This document shows, in pieces, positions 21,785 through 63,242 of a stretch of DNA of 64,000 bases (within the stretch, counting starts at the first letter, position 1; every line of letters starts with the position of its first letter). The notes below the pieces were generated by a model. That model worked only from the letters and a program-made list of their open reading frames with translations. It did not search any database and was not told the DNA's origin. The position numbers and the translations under genes were made by a program. Source of the DNA: a virus; the IMG/VR virus record IMGVR_UViG_3300035670_000069, positions 44,557 through 108,556 of that record; one strand, 5' to 3'.

Positions 21785-23908
21785 ATGTCTTTGTATGGAA
21801 ACATGCATTGGAGAAAGGAAATTAAACATAACTTATTTAGAATAATTCTTTCAGTTATATTTGCGCTAGGGTGGACATTTTCAACGGCATCTCAAGCAGA
21901 TTCTGACTCATTAATACAAGCGTATGAAGATATTCAACAACTACAATCAGATATCAATAAATTAAATGACAAGGCAAAAACTCAAGAATTATTAGATATA
22001 GCAATAGATAAGTATAACTATGCAGTACAGTCAAAATATAACTTAGAAGAATCTGAACAAGAATATAATACGGCGGTAGAGCAGGAGTCCTTGGCATTAG
22101 AGGCTAAAACTCTTGCTCTATCTGCTGTAGATGGTCAAACAGTTACTGTGGCTACCGCATTAGAAGATAAGGATCAAGCATTACAAGATAAAAATAATGC
22201 ACAGGATCAACTTGATATTGCCAATATAAATCTTCAGACGACACAATTGACAATTCAAAACTCAGGAAATCAAGGATGGCAATTTACAGCCTATACCCTT
22301 AACAGAAGTGGTGATTTTGCTTATGCTGGAACAGCATATTGTTCTGGTGTAATAACACAGGCATATCAAGGTATGCCAGTATGTGGCAGGTATGAAAACT
22401 TATTTGTGGTTTATTCTGGAAAAATAACAGCACCTGAAGGTGTTAACTTGGTTTCTTTTGCAGGGTATACGGATGATGGATTTAGAATGTATGTAGATGG
22501 TCAATTGGTTATTGATCAGTGGGTAGATCAAGGATCAACATGGAGTCCATATTATTATCATACCTTTACAGCCGAAGATAGGGTTATAGATGTAGTATTT
22601 CATTATTTTAATGGTGGGGGTCCAGGTGTATTTCATGTAGGATGGGGGCATAGTGGTATCTGGACTGGAGTAGCCTCAAGTGCAATGTCTTATGGACAAG
22701 GAGCAACACAGGCACAGATAGACGCATACAATCAGGCTGTATCAGATCAAGCCCAGGCACAACAAGACTATAACTCTATGGCTGAGATTTATAATAATAA
22801 ACTATCTTATTACAATGAACAGAACTCTATATTATTAGCATACCAACAAACTCTTTCTGAGGCAGAAGCAAACCTAACACAGGCTCAAGAAAGCCTAACA
22901 CTTGCATTAGAAAACCTTACACAAGATCAAAATGAATATGAGGTTTCAATACCAGACATGCAGCAAGCAATACTAAATGCTCAAACTGAGTATAACAAAC
23001 AATGGCAATTTGAAGAAAATCAAAGGGTGGCTGCAGCAATTGCACAGGCTATAGCAAACCAGCCACAACCAATGCCAGAGCCAGAACCAATCCCCACGCC
23101 AGAAGAAAGTACACAGCCAACTCCAGAGCCAACCCCAGAGACAGAGCCAGAACCTTCCATAGAGCCTTCACCAGAGCCTACCCCAAATCCTGAGCCATCG
23201 CCTGAGCAAACAGAACCAGATTTCCCCAATCCTCAGCCAACCGATCAAACAGATGATGAATCATCCGTAACTCCAGACCCTGAGCCTGAGATATCTCCAG
23301 AGCCTCAGCCAGAGCCAACACCTCAGCAAACGGATATAGATCCTCTTCCCACTCCAAGTCCTCAACCAGAGAAATCTCCCGTAGCACCTTCTCCAAAACC
23401 ATCACCACCTAATAATACCACCATTGACTTAACTAGCGTTATTGCTAACCTAACTAGCAAAGATAATATTATTGTTAAATTAACACCAGAACAAATGTCT
23501 GCTGTTGGTCAATCTTTGACTACCCTGGCTCCAGAGGCTAAGGTTGAACTAGCACAAGATCTTGGAGTAAAGACAAATGAGATAGCAATACTTGCAGAAG
23601 AAGCACAAGATAATCCTGCAGTCGCTGCTGCCATCGTAACATTTGCTGAAAAGGCAGAGGAAAACGCTGATGCTCCTATGCCATATACAATTGCAGACGC
23701 TATTACTGAGGCTGCTGCTGAGTTATTTTTAGAGGATCCCTTGGCGGTATTTAATAATATAGATTTAGAAGAATTATCTGACCCTACTCAATGGGGCAAA
23801 GATATGACAGATGATCAGAGAGAAAAGGCACAAGAGGTAATTGTTCCAGTTATTCTTGTTTCTAATATAATTTCTTCTGTGGCTTCTGCGTTAACAAGGA
23901 GGGTATAA
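21785..23908 (+). CDS. Secreted/membrane-anchored PA14-domain protein with coiled coils and Pro/Glu linker
   Basis: Signal-like N-terminus; TDDGFRMYVDG..IDQW.DQG PA14 motif; PEP repeats about 23060-23410; hydrophobic C-terminus. Confidence 0.75.
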   Translation: MSLYGNMHWRKEIKHNLFRIILSVIFALGWTFSTASQADSDSLIQAYEDIQQLQSDINKLNDKAKTQELLDIAIDKYNYAVQSKYNLEESEQEYNTAVEQESLALEAKTLALSAVDGQTVTVATALEDKDQALQDKNNAQDQLDIANINLQTTQLTIQNSGNQGWQFTAYTLNRSGDFAYAGTAYCSGVITQAYQGMPVCGRYENLFVVYSGKITAPEGVNLVSFAGYTDDGFRMYVDGQLVIDQWVDQGSTWSPYYYHTFTAEDRVIDVVFHYFNGGGPGVFHVGWGHSGIWTGVASSAMSYGQGATQAQIDAYNQAVSDQAQAQQDYNSMAEIYNNKLSYYNEQNSILLAYQQTLSEAEANLTQAQESLTLALENLTQDQNEYEVSIPDMQQAILNAQTEYNKQWQFEENQRVAAAIAQAIANQPQPMPEPEPIPTPEESTQPTPEPTPETEPEPSIEPSPEPTPNPEPSPEQTEPDFPNPQPTDQTDDESSVTPDPEPEISPEPQPEPTPQQTDIDPLPTPSPQPEKSPVAPSPKPSPPNNTTIDLTSVIANLTSKDNIIVKLTPEQMSAVGQSLTTLAPEAKVELAQDLGVKTNEIAILAEEAQDNPAVAAAIVTFAEKAEENADAPMPYTIADAITEAAAELFLEDPLAVFNNIDLEELSDPTQWGKDMTDDQREKAQEVIVPVILVSNIISSVASALTRRV

Positions 23909-44500: not shown

Positions 44501-44693
44501 CTTTAGAGGAATACCAACAACGGCATGTCCAATATGTGGTTGTAAAACTTTTAACATAAAGGCAGAATTTGATCCAACAGACTATGAAATAGGATTATAT
44601 TATTTAGATGGAAATTGTTCACAATGTGGTACACTATTAACAGTGCCAACACCACTAGACCATCCAAGTAATAGGGAGAAAAATGGATTATAA
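44490..44693 (+). CDS. Zinc-ribbon protein
   Basis: CPIC...CSQC. Confidence 0.65.
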   Translation: MAIDFRGIPTTACPICGCKTFNIKAEFDPTDYEIGLYYLDGNCSQCGTLLTVPTPLDHPSNREKNGL

Positions 44694-53096: not shown

Positions 53097-53130
53097 TTAG
53101 TCTTTTAACCATTACAGGGACATGCCCAGG

Positions 53131-53610
53131 TCACTCTTTATCTTTCTTAAACCATCCACCTACATTTGGATCTAAGGCTTTACCGTCTAATTGAAGCCCA
53201 TCAGGATATACTGTATGAAATACTCCATCCATAAGGCTACCCTCTTGTTCAACAACAAAACCATTTTCTCTATCAAATAATTGATATTCCATAGAGTGAA
53301 TATTGAACGCTTTTCCTAAGATATAAAATACTTTTTGAACATCCAAAGATCCGCAGGTATATAAATCAAACTGTAATAGTCCTGGATCAACTTCATCCCA
53401 TATATGAAAAGCAATATGGCTAGTCTCAATCATAACAATAGCCGTCAATCCTTTGTTTCCATCCTTATCTACATAAGATGAAAATGGCCCTTTAATAATC
53501 TTCATGTCAATTTCTTGTACTAAATTAGTTAAAAAATCAATAGCCTCTTGTTCGGACTGCATAGGATTTTTAACTTTAGCGTTTACTAATAAGTGCTTGT
53601 GATATATCAT
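53131..53610 (-). CDS. speD: S-adenosylmethionine decarboxylase proenzyme
   Basis: KHLLV, GLTAIVMIETSHIAFHIW, DLYTCG. Confidence 0.88.
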   Translation of the reverse strand: MIYHKHLLVNAKVKNPMQSEQEAIDFLTNLVQEIDMKIIKGPFSSYVDKDGNKGLTAIVMIETSHIAFHIWDEVDPGLLQFDLYTCGSLDVQKVFYILGKAFNIHSMEYQLFDRENGFVVEQEGSLMDGVFHTVYPDGLQLDGKALDPNVGGWFKKDKE

Positions 53611-58888: not shown

Positions 58889-59078
58889 GCTCTTCTCCAA
58901 TCTGTATAAAATGGCGGGTAGCAATAATCTGTCCTGCCAACCAGTTGTATTCAAACTCTAGGTCTCTATAGTCTTTAGAATTCTCATCTAGTTTTTCCAT
59001 TTCTTCAGCAACTTCTGCTTGGTCCTGCTCAATAGATACAAGATGTATCTTCATATACTCTAATAAATAATCAGACAT
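58869..59078 (-). CDS. Hypothetical acidic early protein
   Basis: 69 aa, overlaps both neighbours. Confidence 0.6.
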   Translation of the reverse strand: MSDYLLEYMKIHLVSIEQDQAEVAEEMEKLDENSKDYRDLEFEYNWLAGQIIATRHFIQIGEEHAAQAK

Positions 59079-59790
59079 TTATCTCATCCATTCTATAGTC
59101 TGGTACATACTCTTCAGTCAAGTATACTTTATGCTCCTCGCATTCTGCAACTGCTTCTAAATCTGCCTCGCCTAAATAGTGACAAGAATCACAGATTTCT
59201 CCACAATCGTTATCACAATACTGTAATGTGTTGAGTGAATCACAGTCCCTGCATTTATTATCGTAGGATTCTGTTTCCATAGATTCGCCATTCTCTATGA
59301 CTACCTCGCCACCCCAACCAGTCTCTTCCTCAAAGGATAGAGTAAATACTAGATTAGGATACTGCTCAGATAGTTTGACGATAGCCTCAACAGGTGGGGA
59401 CCATGCTGTATTGAAGCGGTATGAAATAAAGTCCTGACCTTCATCAGTCAACTCAGTCTCAGGATACTTATCATCCTCATTGACACATACATCCCATTTA
59501 GTTCCCCAGTTACGCACATTCCAGTCATACCAGTGGTCTGAATCAAAGGATAGGCCCTTAGATAAGTCTGTCTCAGGTTGTGGGCCATAGTAGGCTTCTA
59601 GGTTTGTTGGCTTGACAATGTTCCAGAATGCAAATACAGGGTTGGGATAGTGAAACAGTTTCTTTTCCATTTGTCCTGTTTCTCTATTGTAAGTATCATG
59701 CATTACCTCAAAGGGGGTATTGAGTTGGGCTTTGAGAGCAGATACGTCTCCACCTGAAATGTCTAGGTGGTTGTAACACCAATTGGGCAT
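59071..59790 (-). CDS. DUF1281/YubB-like protein
   Basis: MPNWCYN..WYDW...NWGTKWD..FNTAWSPP..YP.L.F..EE; Cys-rich tail. Confidence 0.8.
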   Translation of the reverse strand: MPNWCYNHLDISGGDVSALKAQLNTPFEVMHDTYNRETGQMEKKLFHYPNPVFAFWNIVKPTNLEAYYGPQPETDLSKGLSFDSDHWYDWNVRNWGTKWDVCVNEDDKYPETELTDEGQDFISYRFNTAWSPPVEAIVKLSEQYPNLVFTLSFEEETGWGGEVVIENGESMETESYDNKCRDCDSLNTLQYCDNDCGEICDSCHYLGEADLEAVAECEEHKVYLTEEYVPDYRMDEINV

Positions 59791-59818
59791 TGGATTCCTT
59801 TCTATAGGTCTTTGTATA

Positions 59819-59847
59819 ATTCTAGCAAAATCTTATGGGGTTGTCAA
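59819..59847 (-). promoter_or_regulatory. Early-type promoter
   Basis: TTGACA-N17-TAGAAT with extended TG. Confidence 0.75.
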
Positions 59848-60003
59848 CTATTGAAAGTGTCCCTCTACTATTAATCCTTGTAAGAAGTCAAAGGCTTTGT
59901 ATAGATCCCGTTTGGTTTCAGGGTCATCGGCGGGTATATATTTAGTAGCCTCATTAATAGAGATCTGCATATCTACTACATCTGTAATGGTATAGCCTAA
60001 CAT
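59848..60003 (-). CDS. Hypothetical early protein (not in ORF track)
   Basis: 51 aa MLGYTITDVV...; AGAAAGGA RBS. Confidence 0.65.
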   Translation of the reverse strand: MLGYTITDVVDMQISINEATKYIPADDPETKRDLYKAFDFLQGLIVEGHFQ

Positions 60004-60024
60004 ATTTTCCTTTCTGTTATATTT

Positions 60025-60053
60025 ATTATAGCAATTTCAGGGATTTAAGTCAA
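60025..60053 (-). promoter_or_regulatory. Early-type promoter
   Basis: TTGACT-N17-TATAAT with extended TG. Confidence 0.8.
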
Positions 60054-60101
60054 GTCATCGTAATTAATTTCTGGAAAAATCTAATTAATATCTTAATCAG
60101 G

Positions 60102-60117
60102 TGTGAGAAAAATCACA
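60102..60117. promoter_or_regulatory. CRP/GlxR-consensus site
   Basis: TGTGA-GAAAAA-TCACA, perfect consensus. Confidence 0.55.
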
Positions 60118-60150
60118 TGCTCGGGGGATTTTTTTGATCAATAAAAAATA

Positions 60151-60177
60151 GAGCAGTTTAGACTCATGCTCAGGAGT
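60151..60177 (-). ncRNA. Pseudoknot motif, copy A
   Basis: ACTC-CTGAGCAT-GAGT-CTAAAC-TGCTC. Confidence 0.7.
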
Positions 60178-60186
60178 TGAATTAGA

Positions 60187-61188
60187 TTAAACTAATTCTA
60201 GAGTTGAATTAACAACTTGCAACAAGCGATTTTTTTCTGCTGTGATAGCAGGGTCAAAACCACTTGAACCCATTAGGATTGATTCAGTAAGACCACGCTT
60301 ACCTCCACGATACCAATCGATTCTTTCTGTAAGTGCATTCCAAGCACCCCAAGCAGAACCAGCAATCATGCCATTGAATTGACCTGTGTAGATGTCATTG
60401 ATAGTGTCGATTTTATTCTCCCACTTTTTCAATGCACCCTTTTTGGTTTCATCAGGCTTTGGATACGCAGCAAGAACAATATCATTGAATTGTTGCGCTG
60501 TGATTTCTTTCTGAATCATCAACTGAGCCATTTTAGAAAACTCGTCCATGTATGCATTAGCAACACCTAGAGCCTCACGTGCTTGTTGCACTTTACCGTC
60601 AGCAGATTGGGTGTGACGAATCTTGAATGATTGCTTTACGCCACGCTTACCTCTACCAAGAGCAACGGCAAGAGTGTTAGCACACACAACACGAACTGGG
60701 GTCACACTTGCTTGAATAGCAACTGAACCATCGTGTGATGTATTGACAAGAAGATAAGTCTTGACAACATCTGCAACACCGCTAGGGTCTAGAACGGTTT
60801 CACGCTCAAGAGCAAGAGAGCCGAAAACTACACGACCACCCTTGAGAGAGCCAGCAGTCTCCCAACGACCTCCACCATCAAGAATTGCATCACCAAAAGT
60901 GAATAGGTCTTCATTTTGTAGTGGAACATAACGCTCACCTACAACACCCAAAACATCTGTCTGAGAATTATCAAACGGATTAGTGCGAACAACATATTGA
61001 TAAGATTTATCTGATGAGAGATTTTCTGGAATCACTACATCTTCTAATCTAACATTCCAATTCTGGAGATTAGCAAGAGACAACATTTCTGATGTTGAAA
61101 CTTCCTCATTAAATACGGTTCCTAAACCATGCCAAGCAGGTTCACGGAAACTAGCGAATGACTTTTCTGATTCTAATTCATGAGCCAT
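60187..61188 (-). CDS. DUF932 family phage/plasmid protein
   Basis: PAWHGLG, LGVVGERY.P.QN, ETAGSLKGG, NTSHDGS, RVVCANTL, IRHT. Confidence 0.9.
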   Translation of the reverse strand: MAHELESEKSFASFREPAWHGLGTVFNEEVSTSEMLSLANLQNWNVRLEDVVIPENLSSDKSYQYVVRTNPFDNSQTDVLGVVGERYVPLQNEDLFTFGDAILDGGGRWETAGSLKGGRVVFGSLALERETVLDPSGVADVVKTYLLVNTSHDGSVAIQASVTPVRVVCANTLAVALGRGKRGVKQSFKIRHTQSADGKVQQAREALGVANAYMDEFSKMAQLMIQKEITAQQFNDIVLAAYPKPDETKKGALKKWENKIDTINDIYTGQFNGMIAGSAWGAWNALTERIDWYRGGKRGLTESILMGSSGFDPAITAEKNRLLQVVNSTLELV

Positions 61189-61220
61189 TTTTTCTTCCTT
61201 TCTGTTTGTTTATTATCTAA

Positions 61221-61249
61221 AGTTTAGCACAATGGACTGACAAAAGCAA
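61221..61249 (-). promoter_or_regulatory. Early-type promoter
   Basis: TTGCTT-N17-TAAACT with extended TG. Confidence 0.7.
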
Positions 61250-61325
61250 ATCCTGGAATTCGTGATCTTTTTCTTAAACTTCTTAAAACGGACATATAGT
61301 ACAAAAGCCCCTCGGGAAATTTTTA

Positions 61326-61354
61326 GAGCAGTTTACATGGACGTGCTCAGGTCC
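61326..61354 (-). ncRNA. Pseudoknot motif, copy B
   Basis: GGAC-CTGAGCAC-GTCC-ATGTAAAC-TGCTC. Confidence 0.7.
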
Positions 61355-61435
61355 CTCACGGTCTCTTTGAAAGAAAGGATGAAAGAAGAGAGCCGTGCAC
61401 ATTGCGGGGCCTTTCATGATCCCCGCAAATTTTAT

Positions 61436-61846
61436 TTAGATGTCAACACTGTCGACACTAGATGAAACATGTGTGACATGGTCCGTGTCATATACAATTG
61501 CGTCGAAATCAATATCATTGATTATGTCTTCAGCATTCTCACCTGCAGGCACATTCAATGTTATATAGTAAGTTACAGAGACTTCAGCCTCTACTTCTTT
61601 TGTTAGTTCGAATCCACCAATCTCTGCCAGTTCCAAGGCCTGCGCCTCGTTGATGGCAATATTCTCTAGATTCTCTATGGTCCAATCACGTAGTGATTCT
61701 GACATTGCATTCAATGCAGCAGATGTACTAAAGTCACGCTGCACGACACGAGCATGAGACTCTTCTACAGTCTTTACTCGCTCCTCTAATTCGGTAATTC
61801 TATTACGAAGGAATTCCTCCGTCATATGTATTTCATTAGTTTCCAT
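61436..61846 (-). CDS. Hypothetical acidic early protein
   Basis: GAAAGGA RBS; very acidic. Confidence 0.7.
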   Translation of the reverse strand: METNEIHMTEEFLRNRITELEERVKTVEESHARVVQRDFSTSAALNAMSESLRDWTIENLENIAINEAQALELAEIGGFELTKEVEAEVSVTYYITLNVPAGENAEDIINDIDFDAIVYDTDHVTHVSSSVDSVDI

Positions 61847-62108
61847 TTGTTATATCCTTTCCAAGTTCATCAAATTCTTTGATATCATCAATCATAGCGT
61901 CCATTTGTTCTTCTGTCAATAGGACATTAGTGACAAGTGTTGCTGTTAGTGATGAGAGTAGAGCAGAATACTCAAACAATGCTCTTGCGAAATCATTATC
62001 TGACATTTCATTTCTTGTGTGAAATAAGTGAGAAGCGATGCCCATTGTCATTTCGTCATGAACTGCTTCTGCTGTTGCTTGTTGTATTGCTATAGCGGTT
62101 GCTATCAT
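61836..62108 (-). CDS. Hypothetical early protein
   Basis: AGAAAGGA RBS before MIATA. Confidence 0.7.
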   Translation of the reverse strand: MIATAIAIQQATAEAVHDEMTMGIASHLFHTRNEMSDNDFARALFEYSALLSSLTATLVTNVLLTEEQMDAMIDDIKEFDELGKDITNGN

Positions 62109-62133
62109 CTTAGTTCCTTTCTTTCTAATTCTA

Positions 62134-62163
62134 AGTTTAGCATTTGGGTCTGACATTTGTCAA
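62134..62163 (-). promoter_or_regulatory. Early-type promoter
   Basis: TTGACA-N18-TAAACT with extended TG. Confidence 0.75.
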
Positions 62164-62174
62164 GTTAGGAGGTG

Positions 62175-62200
62175 GAGCAGTTTAGAGTCATGCTCAGGAC
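62175..62200 (-). ncRNA. Pseudoknot motif, copy C
   Basis: GTC-CTGAGCAT-GAC-TCTAAAC-TGCTC. Confidence 0.7.
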
Positions 62201-62277
62201 GATCCCCAGGGGACACTTGCTATAAATAGCGTGGAACGCAGGGGATAGAGAGAGGGGCTTTTACACCCCTCCCAATT

Positions 62278-62700
62278 TTACAAGTATCTTGCGATAGCGT
62301 TGTAAGTAGAAGTAGAAACTACTTCCTCGTCTGTCATCTTGAGAATACGGACAGCGTTCTCAATTTCCTCAATCATTTCCTTATACTGCCAATCATGGTA
62401 AGTAGTAAAATCCTTTTGAGGTTCATCAGGTAGTTCAATACTTCCAGCAGGTAAGCAGAAAGATACTTGGATTTCGCCATTGTATCTCTTGTGAGCAGAT
62501 AAGTCAGTTGCCTTAGAGATAGCAGATACCGCAAGTTTTGCGACTTCCTTGTTATGCTTCTCCTCAAGTTTCTTGAACTTAGCCTCGTTGCTTGCTTGAT
62601 TAGCCTTATCTTTGTTGATTTGGGCTAACTTAGTTTCTAATGCCTTGATTACTTTGGTTGTAGCAATCTTGACATTTATGGCTTTTCCATTTCTTGCCAT
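62278..62700 (-). CDS. Hypothetical early protein
   Basis: AGAAAGGA RBS; own promoter. Confidence 0.75.
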   Translation of the reverse strand: MARNGKAINVKIATTKVIKALETKLAQINKDKANQASNEAKFKKLEEKHNKEVAKLAVSAISKATDLSAHKRYNGEIQVSFCLPAGSIELPDEPQKDFTTYHDWQYKEMIEEIENAVRILKMTDEEVVSTSTYNAIARYL

Positions 62701-62731
62701 TGTTATCCTTTCTTAGTGGGTTGTTATTTAT

Positions 62732-62760
62732 AGTCTAGCATTTTTACTGCTAGAAATCAA
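62732..62760 (-). promoter_or_regulatory. Early-type promoter
   Basis: TTGATT-N17-TAGACT with extended TG. Confidence 0.75.
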
Positions 62761-62762
62761 GT

Positions 62763-62791
62763 GAGCAGTTTTAGTAGTCATGCTCAGGACT
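62763..62791 (-). ncRNA. Pseudoknot motif, copy D
   Basis: AGTC-CTGAGCAT-GACT-ACTAAAAC-TGCTC. Confidence 0.7.
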
Positions 62792-62807
62792 TTTCCTGTA
62801 TTAGGAA

Positions 62808-62975
62808 TTACTTTGCTGTCCAAGTTGTCCAGCGTGGTGTGCCATTGACATCAAGTTTTACACGAACTGTTGTTCCGTCTGTGTTTGGCTTGATTTCTGT
62901 GATAACACCTGTCACCTTTGACTTTTGTGAGGTGTAGGTGTCGCCTACCTTGTAAGTTGCTGTTGCTACTGCCAT
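62808..62975 (-). CDS. Small SH3/KOW-like protein (not in ORF track)
   Basis: 55 aa MAVATATYKVGDTYTSQKSKVTGVITEI...; GAAAGGA RBS; TTGACA promoter at 63015-63043. Confidence 0.7.
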   Translation of the reverse strand: MAVATATYKVGDTYTSQKSKVTGVITEIKPNTDGTTVRVKLDVNGTPRWTTWTAK

Positions 62976-63074
62976 TTGTATTTCCTTTCAGTTGGTTGTT
63001 TTGCTTACTGTATTATTATTACATTTTGTAGAGAAAATGTCAAGTTTGACCCTGACATTTCTCACATTTTGAGA

Positions 63075-63242
63075 TTAGTAGGTTTTGACCATAGCAAATC
63101 TAGTCTGATTATTAGACAAGCGAAGCATAACCTTAGTTACATTTTGACGCATTGGAACGAACTTCTCAATACGACCTGTAACACCTGTTTTGCTAGTAGT
63201 GAATAAATCGCCTACCTGATAAGTGTATCCGCCTAGTGTCAT
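63075..63242 (-). CDS. Small SH3/KOW-like protein, paralogue of 62808
   Basis: TYQVGDLFTTSKTGVTGRI; AGAAAGGA RBS; TTGTAT-N17-TAAACT at 63274-63302. Confidence 0.7.
   Translation of the reverse strand: MTLGGYTYQVGDLFTTSKTGVTGRIEKFVPMRQNVTKVMLRLSNNQTRFAMVKTY

Follow-up and report, generated by a model that had tools for sequence, protein, structure and literature searches.

A small RNA pseudoknot family placed at gene ends in phages and some bacteria

A short motif recurs four times between predicted early genes in a 64,000-nt stretch of viral DNA (positions 44,557 to 108,556 of the IMG/VR record IMGVR_UViG_3300035670_000069; referred to here as the window). Two questions arise: whether these repeats are copies of a genuine RNA fold and, if so, what such a fold could do between genes. 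The original prediction described a four-copy H-type pseudoknot lying downstream of stop codons and upstream of the next promoter, and offered three functions: a cis antitermination element like HK022 put, an exonuclease-blocking or processing signal for early mRNAs, or a decoy for a host defence protein (ToxI-like). It also suggested a possible match to the STAXI motif.

Four copies of one fold in the window

The observation was confirmed. The pattern CTGAGCAY-N4-9-AAACTGCTC matched exactly four times in the window, each time on the minus strand, whereas none of 100 dinucleotide shuffles gave any match (0 expected by chance). These are the only copies in the whole 108,556-bp virus record. All four are intergenic and sense to the minus-strand genes, 0.6-1.2 kb apart and one per intergenic region, and the stems given in the original prediction were found in the sequence (Table 1). 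The promoter-like site following copy D was read by eye; it scores 8/12 and falls below the listing threshold of the promoter scan.

Table 1 Pseudoknot copies and related features (window coordinates)
Feature	Position (strand)	Pattern match	S1 / S1'	L1	S2 5' / 3'	L2	L3	Upstream stop and distance	Other features	Score
Copy A	60151-60177 (-)	60151-60173	ACTC 60177-74 / GAGT 60165-62	CU 60173-72	GAGCA 60171-67 / UGCUC 60155-51	U 60166	CUAAAC 60161-56	60187-89 (TAA of the DUF932 gene, 60187-61188), 9 nt	followed by UAUUUUUUAU	47.1 bits, E 4.7e-12
Copy B	61326-61354 (-)	61326-61350	GGAC 61354-51 / GUCC 61342-39		3' strand 61330-26	C 61343	AUGUAAAC	61436-38, 81 nt	GC-rich hairpin between stop and knot	24.2 bits, E 2.8e-5
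Copy C	62175-62200 (-)	62175-62197	GUC 62200-198 / GAC 62189-87		62195-91 / 62179-75			62278-80, 77 nt	11 nt before the -35 of the promoter-like site TTGACA-18-TAAACT, 62163-62134	34.2 bits
Copy D	62763-62791 (-)	62763-62787	AGUC 62791-88 / GACU 62779-76		62785-81 / 62767-63		ACUAAAAC	62808-10, 16 nt	2 nt before TTGATT-17-TAGACT	35.4 bits
Hairpin half near the tRNAs	53119-53132							 	no S2 partner; rejected as a fifth copy	

The motif is about 27 nt long and consists of a stem S1 of 3-7 bp closed by a C-G pair, CU, RRRYA (GAGCA), one non-G base, S1', a loop ending in AAAC, and URYYY (UGCUC). Both helices covary. S1 has at least 3 bp in 139/144 hits of a pattern that did not ask for pairing, and in 103/124 hits in cellular genomes. 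Of 38 hits that depart from GAGCA/UGCUC, 33 keep S2 fully paired; 16 of these are compensated on both sides and 17 are one-sided changes rescued by G.U. In an alignment of 148 distinct sequences derived with a model that did not impose S2, S2 is paired in all of them, with 15 cells changed on both sides and 15 being G.U, and the covariation score is 0.48 against 0.12 in shuffles. Changes on both sides occur in 4/4 pairs of S1 and in 4/5 pairs of S2. The loop GAGCA and its partner TGCTC, which had been taken as invariant, are so only within this genome and covary in others.

The element is thus an H-type RNA pseudoknot, a structured single-stranded element as originally predicted and not a dsDNA operator. 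That one-sided changes in S2 are nearly all G.U points to RNA, and an ssDNA element is further disfavoured by the ribosome-scale spacing from stop codons and the strict sense orientation described below. Nested folding with ViennaRNA showed only S2 as a weak hairpin (z-scores of 0 to -1.35) and is uninformative for a pseudoknot.

Distribution and genomic context

The motif occurs in at least 120 IMG/VR contigs, in about 100 bacterial genomes or MAGs of many phyla and in cultured phages such as Roseophage SIO1, Lentibacter phage ICBM1, cobaviruses, Synechococcus phage S-SM2 and the streptococcal prophage Javan271. In SIO1 the knot lies at 22199-22225, after the ribonucleotide reductase gene. 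The motif is found in very many unrelated phages and in phages of every lifestyle, usually as a single copy. It matched nothing in Rfam 15: at gathering thresholds the window gave only 6 tRNAs, at E<=10 over 59800-63200 no family matched at any of the four sites, and 20 cellular loci carrying the motif gave no hit at the motif. Literature searches on the motif, on DUF932 together with pseudoknots, on structured phage RNAs and on 3' stabilisers gave nothing relevant, and we found no paper describing it. A megablast search of the region against cultured phages gave no match, Streptomyces phage NootNoot (a distant relative identified through its DUF932 gene and its DnaE polymerase) has no copy, and E. 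coli genomes gave no match with the copy-C stem.

The knot is always sense to genes and is tied to the upstream stop codon. The spacer between the stop and S1 has a sharp onset at 4-5 nt and a mode of 5-6 nt, and 113/200 spacers lie within 4-12 nt. In intergenic regions of 150 nt or more, 53/127 copies lie within 15 nt of the stop and only 7/127 within 35 nt of the next start. Thirty-eight copies sit tail-to-tail with a convergent gene, in several cases in gaps of only about 40 nt that leave no room for another structure, and in 16 copies a tRNA gene starts 3-14 nt after the knot. The 3' flank has A at +1 (62%) and is G-poor up to about +8. However, compact phage genomes would push any intergenic element close to a stop codon.

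This placement argues against a riboswitch, which would sit in the 5' leader of a coherent set of regulated genes, with an expression platform. The downstream genes are unrelated to one another and fall into 130 clusters for 188 ORFs, with no coherent family. A ligand-binding mini-aptamer in the style of preQ1-I, or a very small self-cleaving ribozyme, is therefore very unlikely, although the size and architecture (a short S1, an A-rich L3 and a single junction base) resemble the preQ1-I aptamer, the loop bases are highly conserved, and multi-copy, phage-borne, tRNA-adjacent contexts resemble those of small ribozymes. Besides the position, the occurrence in convergent gaps, the lack of any Rfam aptamer or ribozyme match at E<=10 and the presence of U, C or A at L2 within a single genome speak against it.

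HK022 put-like antitermination is not supported either. The put RNA is a two-stem RNA transcribed just downstream of a promoter and acts on terminators further downstream, whereas this element lies at gene ends, upstream of promoters, and occurs in convergent gaps where there is nothing downstream to antiterminate. Similarly, a ToxI-like decoy is not supported. Type III antitoxins are tandem arrays of 34-36 nt direct repeats next to a ToxN-type endoribonuclease gene, but the copies here are dispersed, the neighbouring ORFs scanned have no ToxN-like Pfam match, and the motif also occurs in bacterial chromosomes behind a small conserved ORF. The multi-copy occurrence in an early, probably host-takeover region beside DUF932 (the family was assigned on an orthologue) and Api92-like genes is in favour of these two options, which we nevertheless consider very unlikely.

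Possible functions of the knot

The functional part of the original prediction was partly supported: of its three proposals, the exonuclease-blocking or processing signal fits the context statistics best. Our analysis shows that the fold is under selection as RNA, that it is always sense to genes, that it is anchored to the upstream stop codon and not to the next start, and that it starts no closer than 4-5 nt after the stop, which by ribosome and frameshift-site geometry is the nearest position at which a structure stays folded while a ribosome sits on the stop codon. What we infer, from position alone and tentatively, is that the knot, transcribed as the tail of the upstream gene, is a 3'-boundary element capping the upstream cistron. 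In this view, after termination, or after a cut in the G-poor, U-rich tail or at an adjacent tRNA (tRNA 5' processing would leave the knot at a 3' end), 3'-to-5' exonucleases would trim back to the knot and stall there, giving each early message a defined, protected end with almost no naked RNA behind the last ribosome. The invariant loop bases (CU in L1, AAAC in L3, the closing C-G pair and non-G at L2) would then be tertiary contacts that make so small a fold mechanically tough.

Some observations do not agree with this view. In about 30 cellular cases a conserved ORF of 18-26 aa or a longer ORF ends inside the knot, which the ribosome must melt there, and in several cellular cases an ordinary hairpin-plus-U terminator, which would already protect the 3' end, follows within 5-25 nt. 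In the window, copies B and C lie about 80 nt after the stop and behind GC-rich hairpins; if those hairpins terminate, little transcript would reach the knot. Moreover, nine base pairs is modest stability for a roadblock, and conservation of loop sequence across phyla could instead reflect recognition by a universal factor. If the reading holds, one of the smallest and most widely spread structured RNA motifs of phages and bacteria has gone uncatalogued, with covariation of textbook quality and an unusually precise placement relative to the stop codon. It would show how phages set the ends and lifetimes of individual early messages without hairpin terminators, give annotators a marker for gene ends, and could serve as a 27-nt portable part for stabilising or insulating cistrons in many hosts. 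Its function is open to direct testing since cultured phages carry it.

An atypical intrinsic terminator or pause signal seems unlikely. Formation of S2 behind RNA polymerase, followed by a weak G-poor, U-rich hybrid, would release the transcript and keep read-through from occluding the next early promoter. In agreement with this, the knot occupies the place of a bidirectional terminator in tight convergent gaps and lies 2-11 nt before promoters in this window and in related contigs. The flank from +2 to +10 holds a mean of 3.2 U against 2.4 expected, with G depleted only over about 8 nt, roughly one hybrid length, and copy A and 25/299 copies carry a true U-run. However, a canonical terminator is a GC-rich hairpin followed directly by a U-tract, and most copies have no U-tract: only 25/299 copies have at least 7 U in the next 10 nt. 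Hairpin-plus-U sites are not enriched downstream of the knot (17/299 against 122/2562 at control ORF ends), and U-richness is the same whether or not a gene follows within 45 nt. Many copies are operon-internal, 15-35 nt before the next start, where termination would be harmful. A plain hairpin would also serve as a terminator, and the conserved loop bases are not explained.

Coupling to translation termination also appears unlikely. Lodged at the mRNA entrance of a ribosome sitting on the stop codon, the knot would modulate termination or recycling, block post-termination sliding and re-initiation, or report whether the upstream ORF is being translated. The spacer geometry is the same as that of frameshift and read-through stimulators relative to the A-site codon. 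Positions between -6 and +3 are avoided, but a second class of ORFs stops exactly at the loop UGA, and the small conserved ORF keeps its stop inside the knot even when the stop codon moves. On the other hand, about 40% of copies, including B and C, lie more than 12 nt from any stop, and there is no stop-codon preference beyond the TAA bias of AT-rich genomes. The loop UGA has no preferred frame relative to the ORF (41/54/36 across the three frames), and no ORF is consistently open beyond the stop, in contrast to a programmed frameshift or read-through stimulator, which has a slippery site or leaky stop and an ORF continuing through and beyond the structure. The small ORF was not found in NCBIfam and its neighbours were not informative. 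A more far-reaching possibility, which is not excluded but which we regard as improbable, is that the knot is not a passive plug but a sequence-specific fold recognised by a universal machine, most plausibly the ribosome at the stop codon or a 3' exonuclease. This would make it a new class of termination-coupled, xrRNA-like element in prokaryotes, shared by phages, plasmids and bacterial chromosomes across phyla, with the conserved 20-aa ORF that stops inside the knot as its cellular prototype.

The adjacency of several copies to tRNA genes is also in keeping with a tRNA-acceptor-like mimic, comparable to the TYMV 3' pseudoknot, cut by RNase P at CU|G or acted on by another tRNA enzyme and so punctuating polycistronic early RNA. 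The topology matches, in that a hairpin loop pairs with the 3' strand and a single-stranded tail, starting with A in 62% of copies, follows. In addition, U precedes the first S2 base and the first S2 pair is G-C in about 90% of copies. This reading is nevertheless very doubtful. The coaxial stack is 8-10 bp and not 12, there is no T-loop analogue, and ACCA follows S2 in only 12/299 copies. A cut between U and G would destroy the UGA that at least 25 ORFs use as their stop. The element is tied to the upstream gene, and such a cut would leave that gene's message unprotected.

Relation to other small RNA elements

The architecture is that of luteovirus-type compact H-type pseudoknots such as the BWYV frameshift knot: a short S1, a 2-nt L1 starting with C, one unpaired base at the helix junction, an A-rich L3 that presumably lies in the S1 minor groove, and placement 5-9 nt after the A-site codon. 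The present knot, however, follows a stop codon and not a slippery site, no overlapping ORF continues through it, S2 is 5 bp rather than 3, and it is found in DNA phages and bacteria. The preQ1-I aptamer (RF00522) is likewise an H-type knot of about 30 nt with an A-rich 3' loop, but the element is not in 5' leaders of queuosine genes and lacks the long L2 that carries the ligand-binding C. Unlike the TYMV-type acceptor knot, it has no T or D arm, CCA is rare and it is internal to transcripts. STAXI is pseudoknot-based and found near antirestriction-type genes of mobile elements, but it is a tandem of 2-3 knots and did not match here even at E<=10.

The 3' stabilisers and processing signals of bacterial and phage mRNAs (T7 early RNase III sites, REP hairpins and terminator hairpins) share the intercistronic or gene-end position, the sense strand, the repetition between early genes and the proposed role of giving the upstream message a protected 3' end. 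Those elements are long hairpins defined by structure alone, and RNase III needs about 20 bp of duplex, whereas this element is a 9-bp pseudoknot with conserved loop bases shared across phyla. The xrRNAs of eukaryotic RNA viruses are also small pseudoknotted folds proposed to stop a processive exonuclease, but they block the 5'-to-3' enzyme Xrn1 and protect downstream RNA, while the block inferred here would be 3'-to-5'; there is no sequence or model similarity. Finally, the arrangement in the window, a structure followed directly by an early promoter and repeated between small early genes, is similar to the PeSL cassettes (promoter-early stem-loops) of T4-type phages. PeSL stem-loops are ordinary hairpins specific to one phage group, whereas this knot occurs widely without any adjacent promoter.

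Occurrence and anatomy of the motif

The pattern CTGAGCAY-N4-9-AAACTGCTC was found four times on the minus strand (copies A to D in the table below), whereas none of 100 dinucleotide shuffles gave a match. Reading of the sequence confirms the four occurrences described in the original prediction, together with their stems ACTC/GAGT, GGAC/GTCC, GTC/GAC and AGTC/GACT and the complementarity of the loop GAGCA to the downstream UGCUC. Both the pattern and a covariance model detected only these four copies in the complete 108,556-bp IMG/VR virus record, of which the window is the last 64 kb. A weak fifth hit, GAC-CUGGGCAU-GUC, represents only the hairpin half of the motif. It lies directly after a TGA stop and 22 nt before tRNA-Met and has no S2 partner (UGCCC) downstream; it may be a decayed copy or a plain hairpin variant. 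Copy C ends 11 nt before a TTGACA-18-TAAACT site and copy D ends 2 nt before TTGATT-17-TAGACT, the latter being assigned by visual inspection.

Coordinates of the pseudoknot copies and of other features noted in the window and in other loci
Feature	Position	Strand	Remark
Copy A (pattern match)	60151-73	-	9 nt after the stop of a minus-strand ORF
Copy B (pattern match)	61326-50	-	81 nt after the stop of a minus-strand ORF
Copy C (pattern match)	62175-97	-	77 nt after the stop of a minus-strand ORF
Copy D (pattern match)	62763-87	-	16 nt after the stop of a minus-strand ORF
Half-motif	53119-53132	-	hairpin half only
Box downstream of copy B	61311-61324	-	AAAAAT[TC][TC]CCCGAG
Box downstream of copy A	60120-60133	-	AAAAAT[TC][TC]CCCGAG
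GC-rich hairpin between stop and copy B	61401-61423	-	GCGGGG...CCCCGC, no U-tract
GC-rich hairpin between stop and copy C	62246-62268	-	GGAGGGG...CCCCTC, no U-tract
DUF932 gene	60187-61188	-	54% identical to proteins of Streptomyces BE-cluster phages
DUF1281/Api92-like gene	59071-59790	-	ferredoxin-like domain
Conserved small ORF, locus L132	109-168
Conserved small ORF, locus L241	1126-1185
Conserved small ORF, locus L203	1149-1208
Pseudoknot in Acinetobacter baumannii plasmid p86G, locus L254	2497-2531		NZ_CP139209.1 2936-2974

The motif belongs to a large family and is not a private repeat of this genome. The same pattern, which did not include stem 1 (S1), hit at least 120 IMG/VR contigs, and yet 139 of 144 instances have a stem of 3-7 bp flanking CUGAGCAY, with dozens of different stem sequences, although only about 5% would be expected by chance. 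A slightly tighter pattern hit at least 120 GTDB contigs, and 103 of 124 instances have an S1 of at least 3 bp. The phyla include Saccharibacteria, Chloroflexota, Clostridia, Desulfobacterota and Acidobacteriota; two Methanobrevibacter bins also appeared, but some bins may contain phage contigs. A BLAST search with copy C found the motif in intergenic DNA of cultured phages: Roseophage SIO1, just after the ribonucleotide reductase gene, and its cobavirus relatives, Synechococcus phages S-SM2, S-CRM01 and S-EIVl, Bacillus phages Edson and WH1, Streptococcus prophages Javan271 and Javan383, and Paracoccus, Nostoc, Microcystis, Mycobacterium and Arthrobacter phages. One full pseudoknot, with a G.U pair in S2, was also found in the small A. 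baumannii plasmid p86G, in a long non-coding stretch about 650 nt upstream of repM.

The element consists, in order, of S1 of 3-7 bp (most commonly 4 bp) closed by C-G, loop L1 (CU), the S2 5' strand RRRYA (GAGCA), a single L2 base (U in 72%, C in 18%, A in 10% and G once), the S1 3' strand, loop L3 ending in AAAC and the S2 3' strand URYYY (UGCUC). It is followed by A at +1 (62%) and by a flank which is G-poor and U-rich up to about +8. The S1 3' strand and L3 together total exactly 10 nt in 249/299 copies. These frequencies are partly inflated by ascertainment since the loci were fetched with the canonical pattern. The motif does not correspond to a catalogued family: cmscan against Rfam 15 detected only tRNAs at gathering thresholds and nothing at the four sites at E<=10, twenty cellular loci also gave nothing at the motif, and full-text literature searches found no description of it.

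Covariation of both helices

A search in which only the closing C-G pair, CU, AAAC and a 4-bp S1 were fixed, whereas both S2 strands were left free, gave 196 hits. Of these, 38 depart from GAGCA/UGCUC on at least one strand, and 33 of the 38 remain fully paired. Sixteen are compensated on both sides, for example AAGCA/UGCUU, GGACA/UGUCC, AGACA/UGUCU, GAACA/UGUUC, GAGUA/UACUC and GGGCG/CGCCC, the last of which replaces the otherwise invariant A-U, and 17 of the 18 one-sided changes create G.U. A covariance model (R1) built with S1 as its only pairs aligned 150 hits from 98 viral loci. In this alignment, S2 is paired in 100% of cells for 148 distinct sequences, and 4 of 5 S2 pairs and 4 of 4 S1 pairs show changes on both sides. 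The covariation score is 0.48, compared with 0.12 in shuffles and at most 0.075 for slid partners. The tolerance of G.U, the strict sense orientation and the ribosome-scale spacing from stops all argue for RNA rather than ssDNA. The interpretation offered in the original prediction was partly supported: the element is a structured single-stranded one, but a put-like RNA or a decoy, which were also suggested, both seem very unlikely.

Genomic context and the overlapping small ORF

The context was examined using ORF-based approximations of gene calls. The motif is sense to its neighbours, and 204 of 237 intergenic copies have a same-strand upstream gene. The first base of the stop peaks at -12 relative to the loop start (35 cases), followed by -13 (20) and -14 (14), and almost nothing lies between -10 and 0. 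The stop-to-S1 spacer therefore begins sharply at 4-5 nt with a mode of 5-6 nt, and 113/200 spacers are 4-12 nt. In intergenic regions of at least 150 nt, 53/127 copies are within 15 nt of the stop and only 7/127 are within 35 nt of the next start. In our window only copies A and D are stop-proximal, whereas B and C lie about 80 nt from the stop behind GC-rich hairpins, which may be U-less terminators of the actinobacterial type. A termination-coupled ribosome element was considered as an alternative function, but an unlikely one.

Thirty-eight copies are tail-to-tail with a convergent gene, and several of these gaps are about 40 nt and contain nothing else. Sixteen copies are followed 3-14 nt later by a same-strand tRNA gene; many of these are tRNA-Asp after DUF932 in related phages and are therefore not independent. 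The flanking genes are diverse. Upstream genes include DUF932 (the largest cluster, 23), which is the commonest gene directly upstream of the knot in related phages, HSP20 and ribonucleotide reductase, and downstream genes include a staphylococcal-type nuclease and a zinc-ribbon protein. Canonical hairpin-plus-U terminators are not enriched downstream, and the mild U-richness of the flank is the same whether or not a gene follows closely. An atypical terminator, although the foremost of the alternatives, is likewise considered unlikely.

In bacterial chromosomes and MAGs of several phyla, the knot overlaps the end of a conserved ORF of 18-26 aa with the consensus MKRFMVPRVAHCKxGCxxxS and a strong Shine-Dalgarno sequence (loci L132, L241, L203, L190, L163 and others in the alignment of these ORFs), a candidate cellular prototype of the arrangement. 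Its stop is the UGA in the loop CUGAGCA. The ORF is not in NCBIfam and may encode an undescribed small protein with invariant H, C, G and C residues. A profile search for the peptide alone found four more ORFs among 151 genomes of one phylum, three of which carry a full knot with covarying S2 (GGGCA/UGCCC). In two of them the stop has moved to a TAG that overlaps the S1 5' strand, and in the third the loop reads UGG and the frame stays open through the knot. The fourth ORF has only a degenerate hairpin and no S2 partner. An ordinary terminator often follows. Ribosomes can therefore melt the knot, and the link between the knot and translation termination is conserved. The use of this UGA as the stop of many ORFs also weakens the possibility of a tRNA-like RNase P site, since the predicted cut would destroy it, and this reading appears very unlikely. 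In Saccharibacteria MAGs (loci L127, L161, L166, L184 and L195), an upstream ORF reads through S1, L1 and S2 (...PEHD) and stops at the UAA inside L3, and a 138-aa gene with no Pfam match starts 22 nt after the knot; this arrangement is conserved in several MAGs.

Inferred function and the surrounding phage region

The analysis itself establishes that the element is an RNA pseudoknot under selection, that it is sense-oriented, that it is anchored to the upstream stop at the minimal distance and that it is present at the ends of transcription units. From established ribosome geometry, with a codon in the A site, downstream duplex stays paired from about +11/+12, which is why frameshift stimulators sit 5-9 nt after the slippery site. 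A 5-nt spacer is thus the closest position at which the knot survives a terminating ribosome. What the knot does is only inferred. We tentatively propose, with less than even confidence, that it is a 3'-boundary element which caps the upstream cistron against 3'-to-5' decay after termination or a downstream cut, and that the conserved loop bases would act as tertiary contacts. An aptamer or ribozyme was also considered and seems very unlikely.

The phage genome encodes a DnaE-type polymerase 55% identical to those of Streptomyces BE/BK-cluster phages, a DnaB helicase, a terminase and six tRNAs. The knots sit in a leftward block of small genes with sigma-70-like promoters at the right end of the record, which looks like an early, host-takeover-type region that includes the DUF932 and Api92-like genes. 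The box AAAAAT[TC][TC]CCCGAG lies 2-18 nt downstream of copies B and A, and similar boxes follow the knot in related contigs (L196, L078, L041, L006 and L121); it could be a phage-specific regulatory or promoter element.
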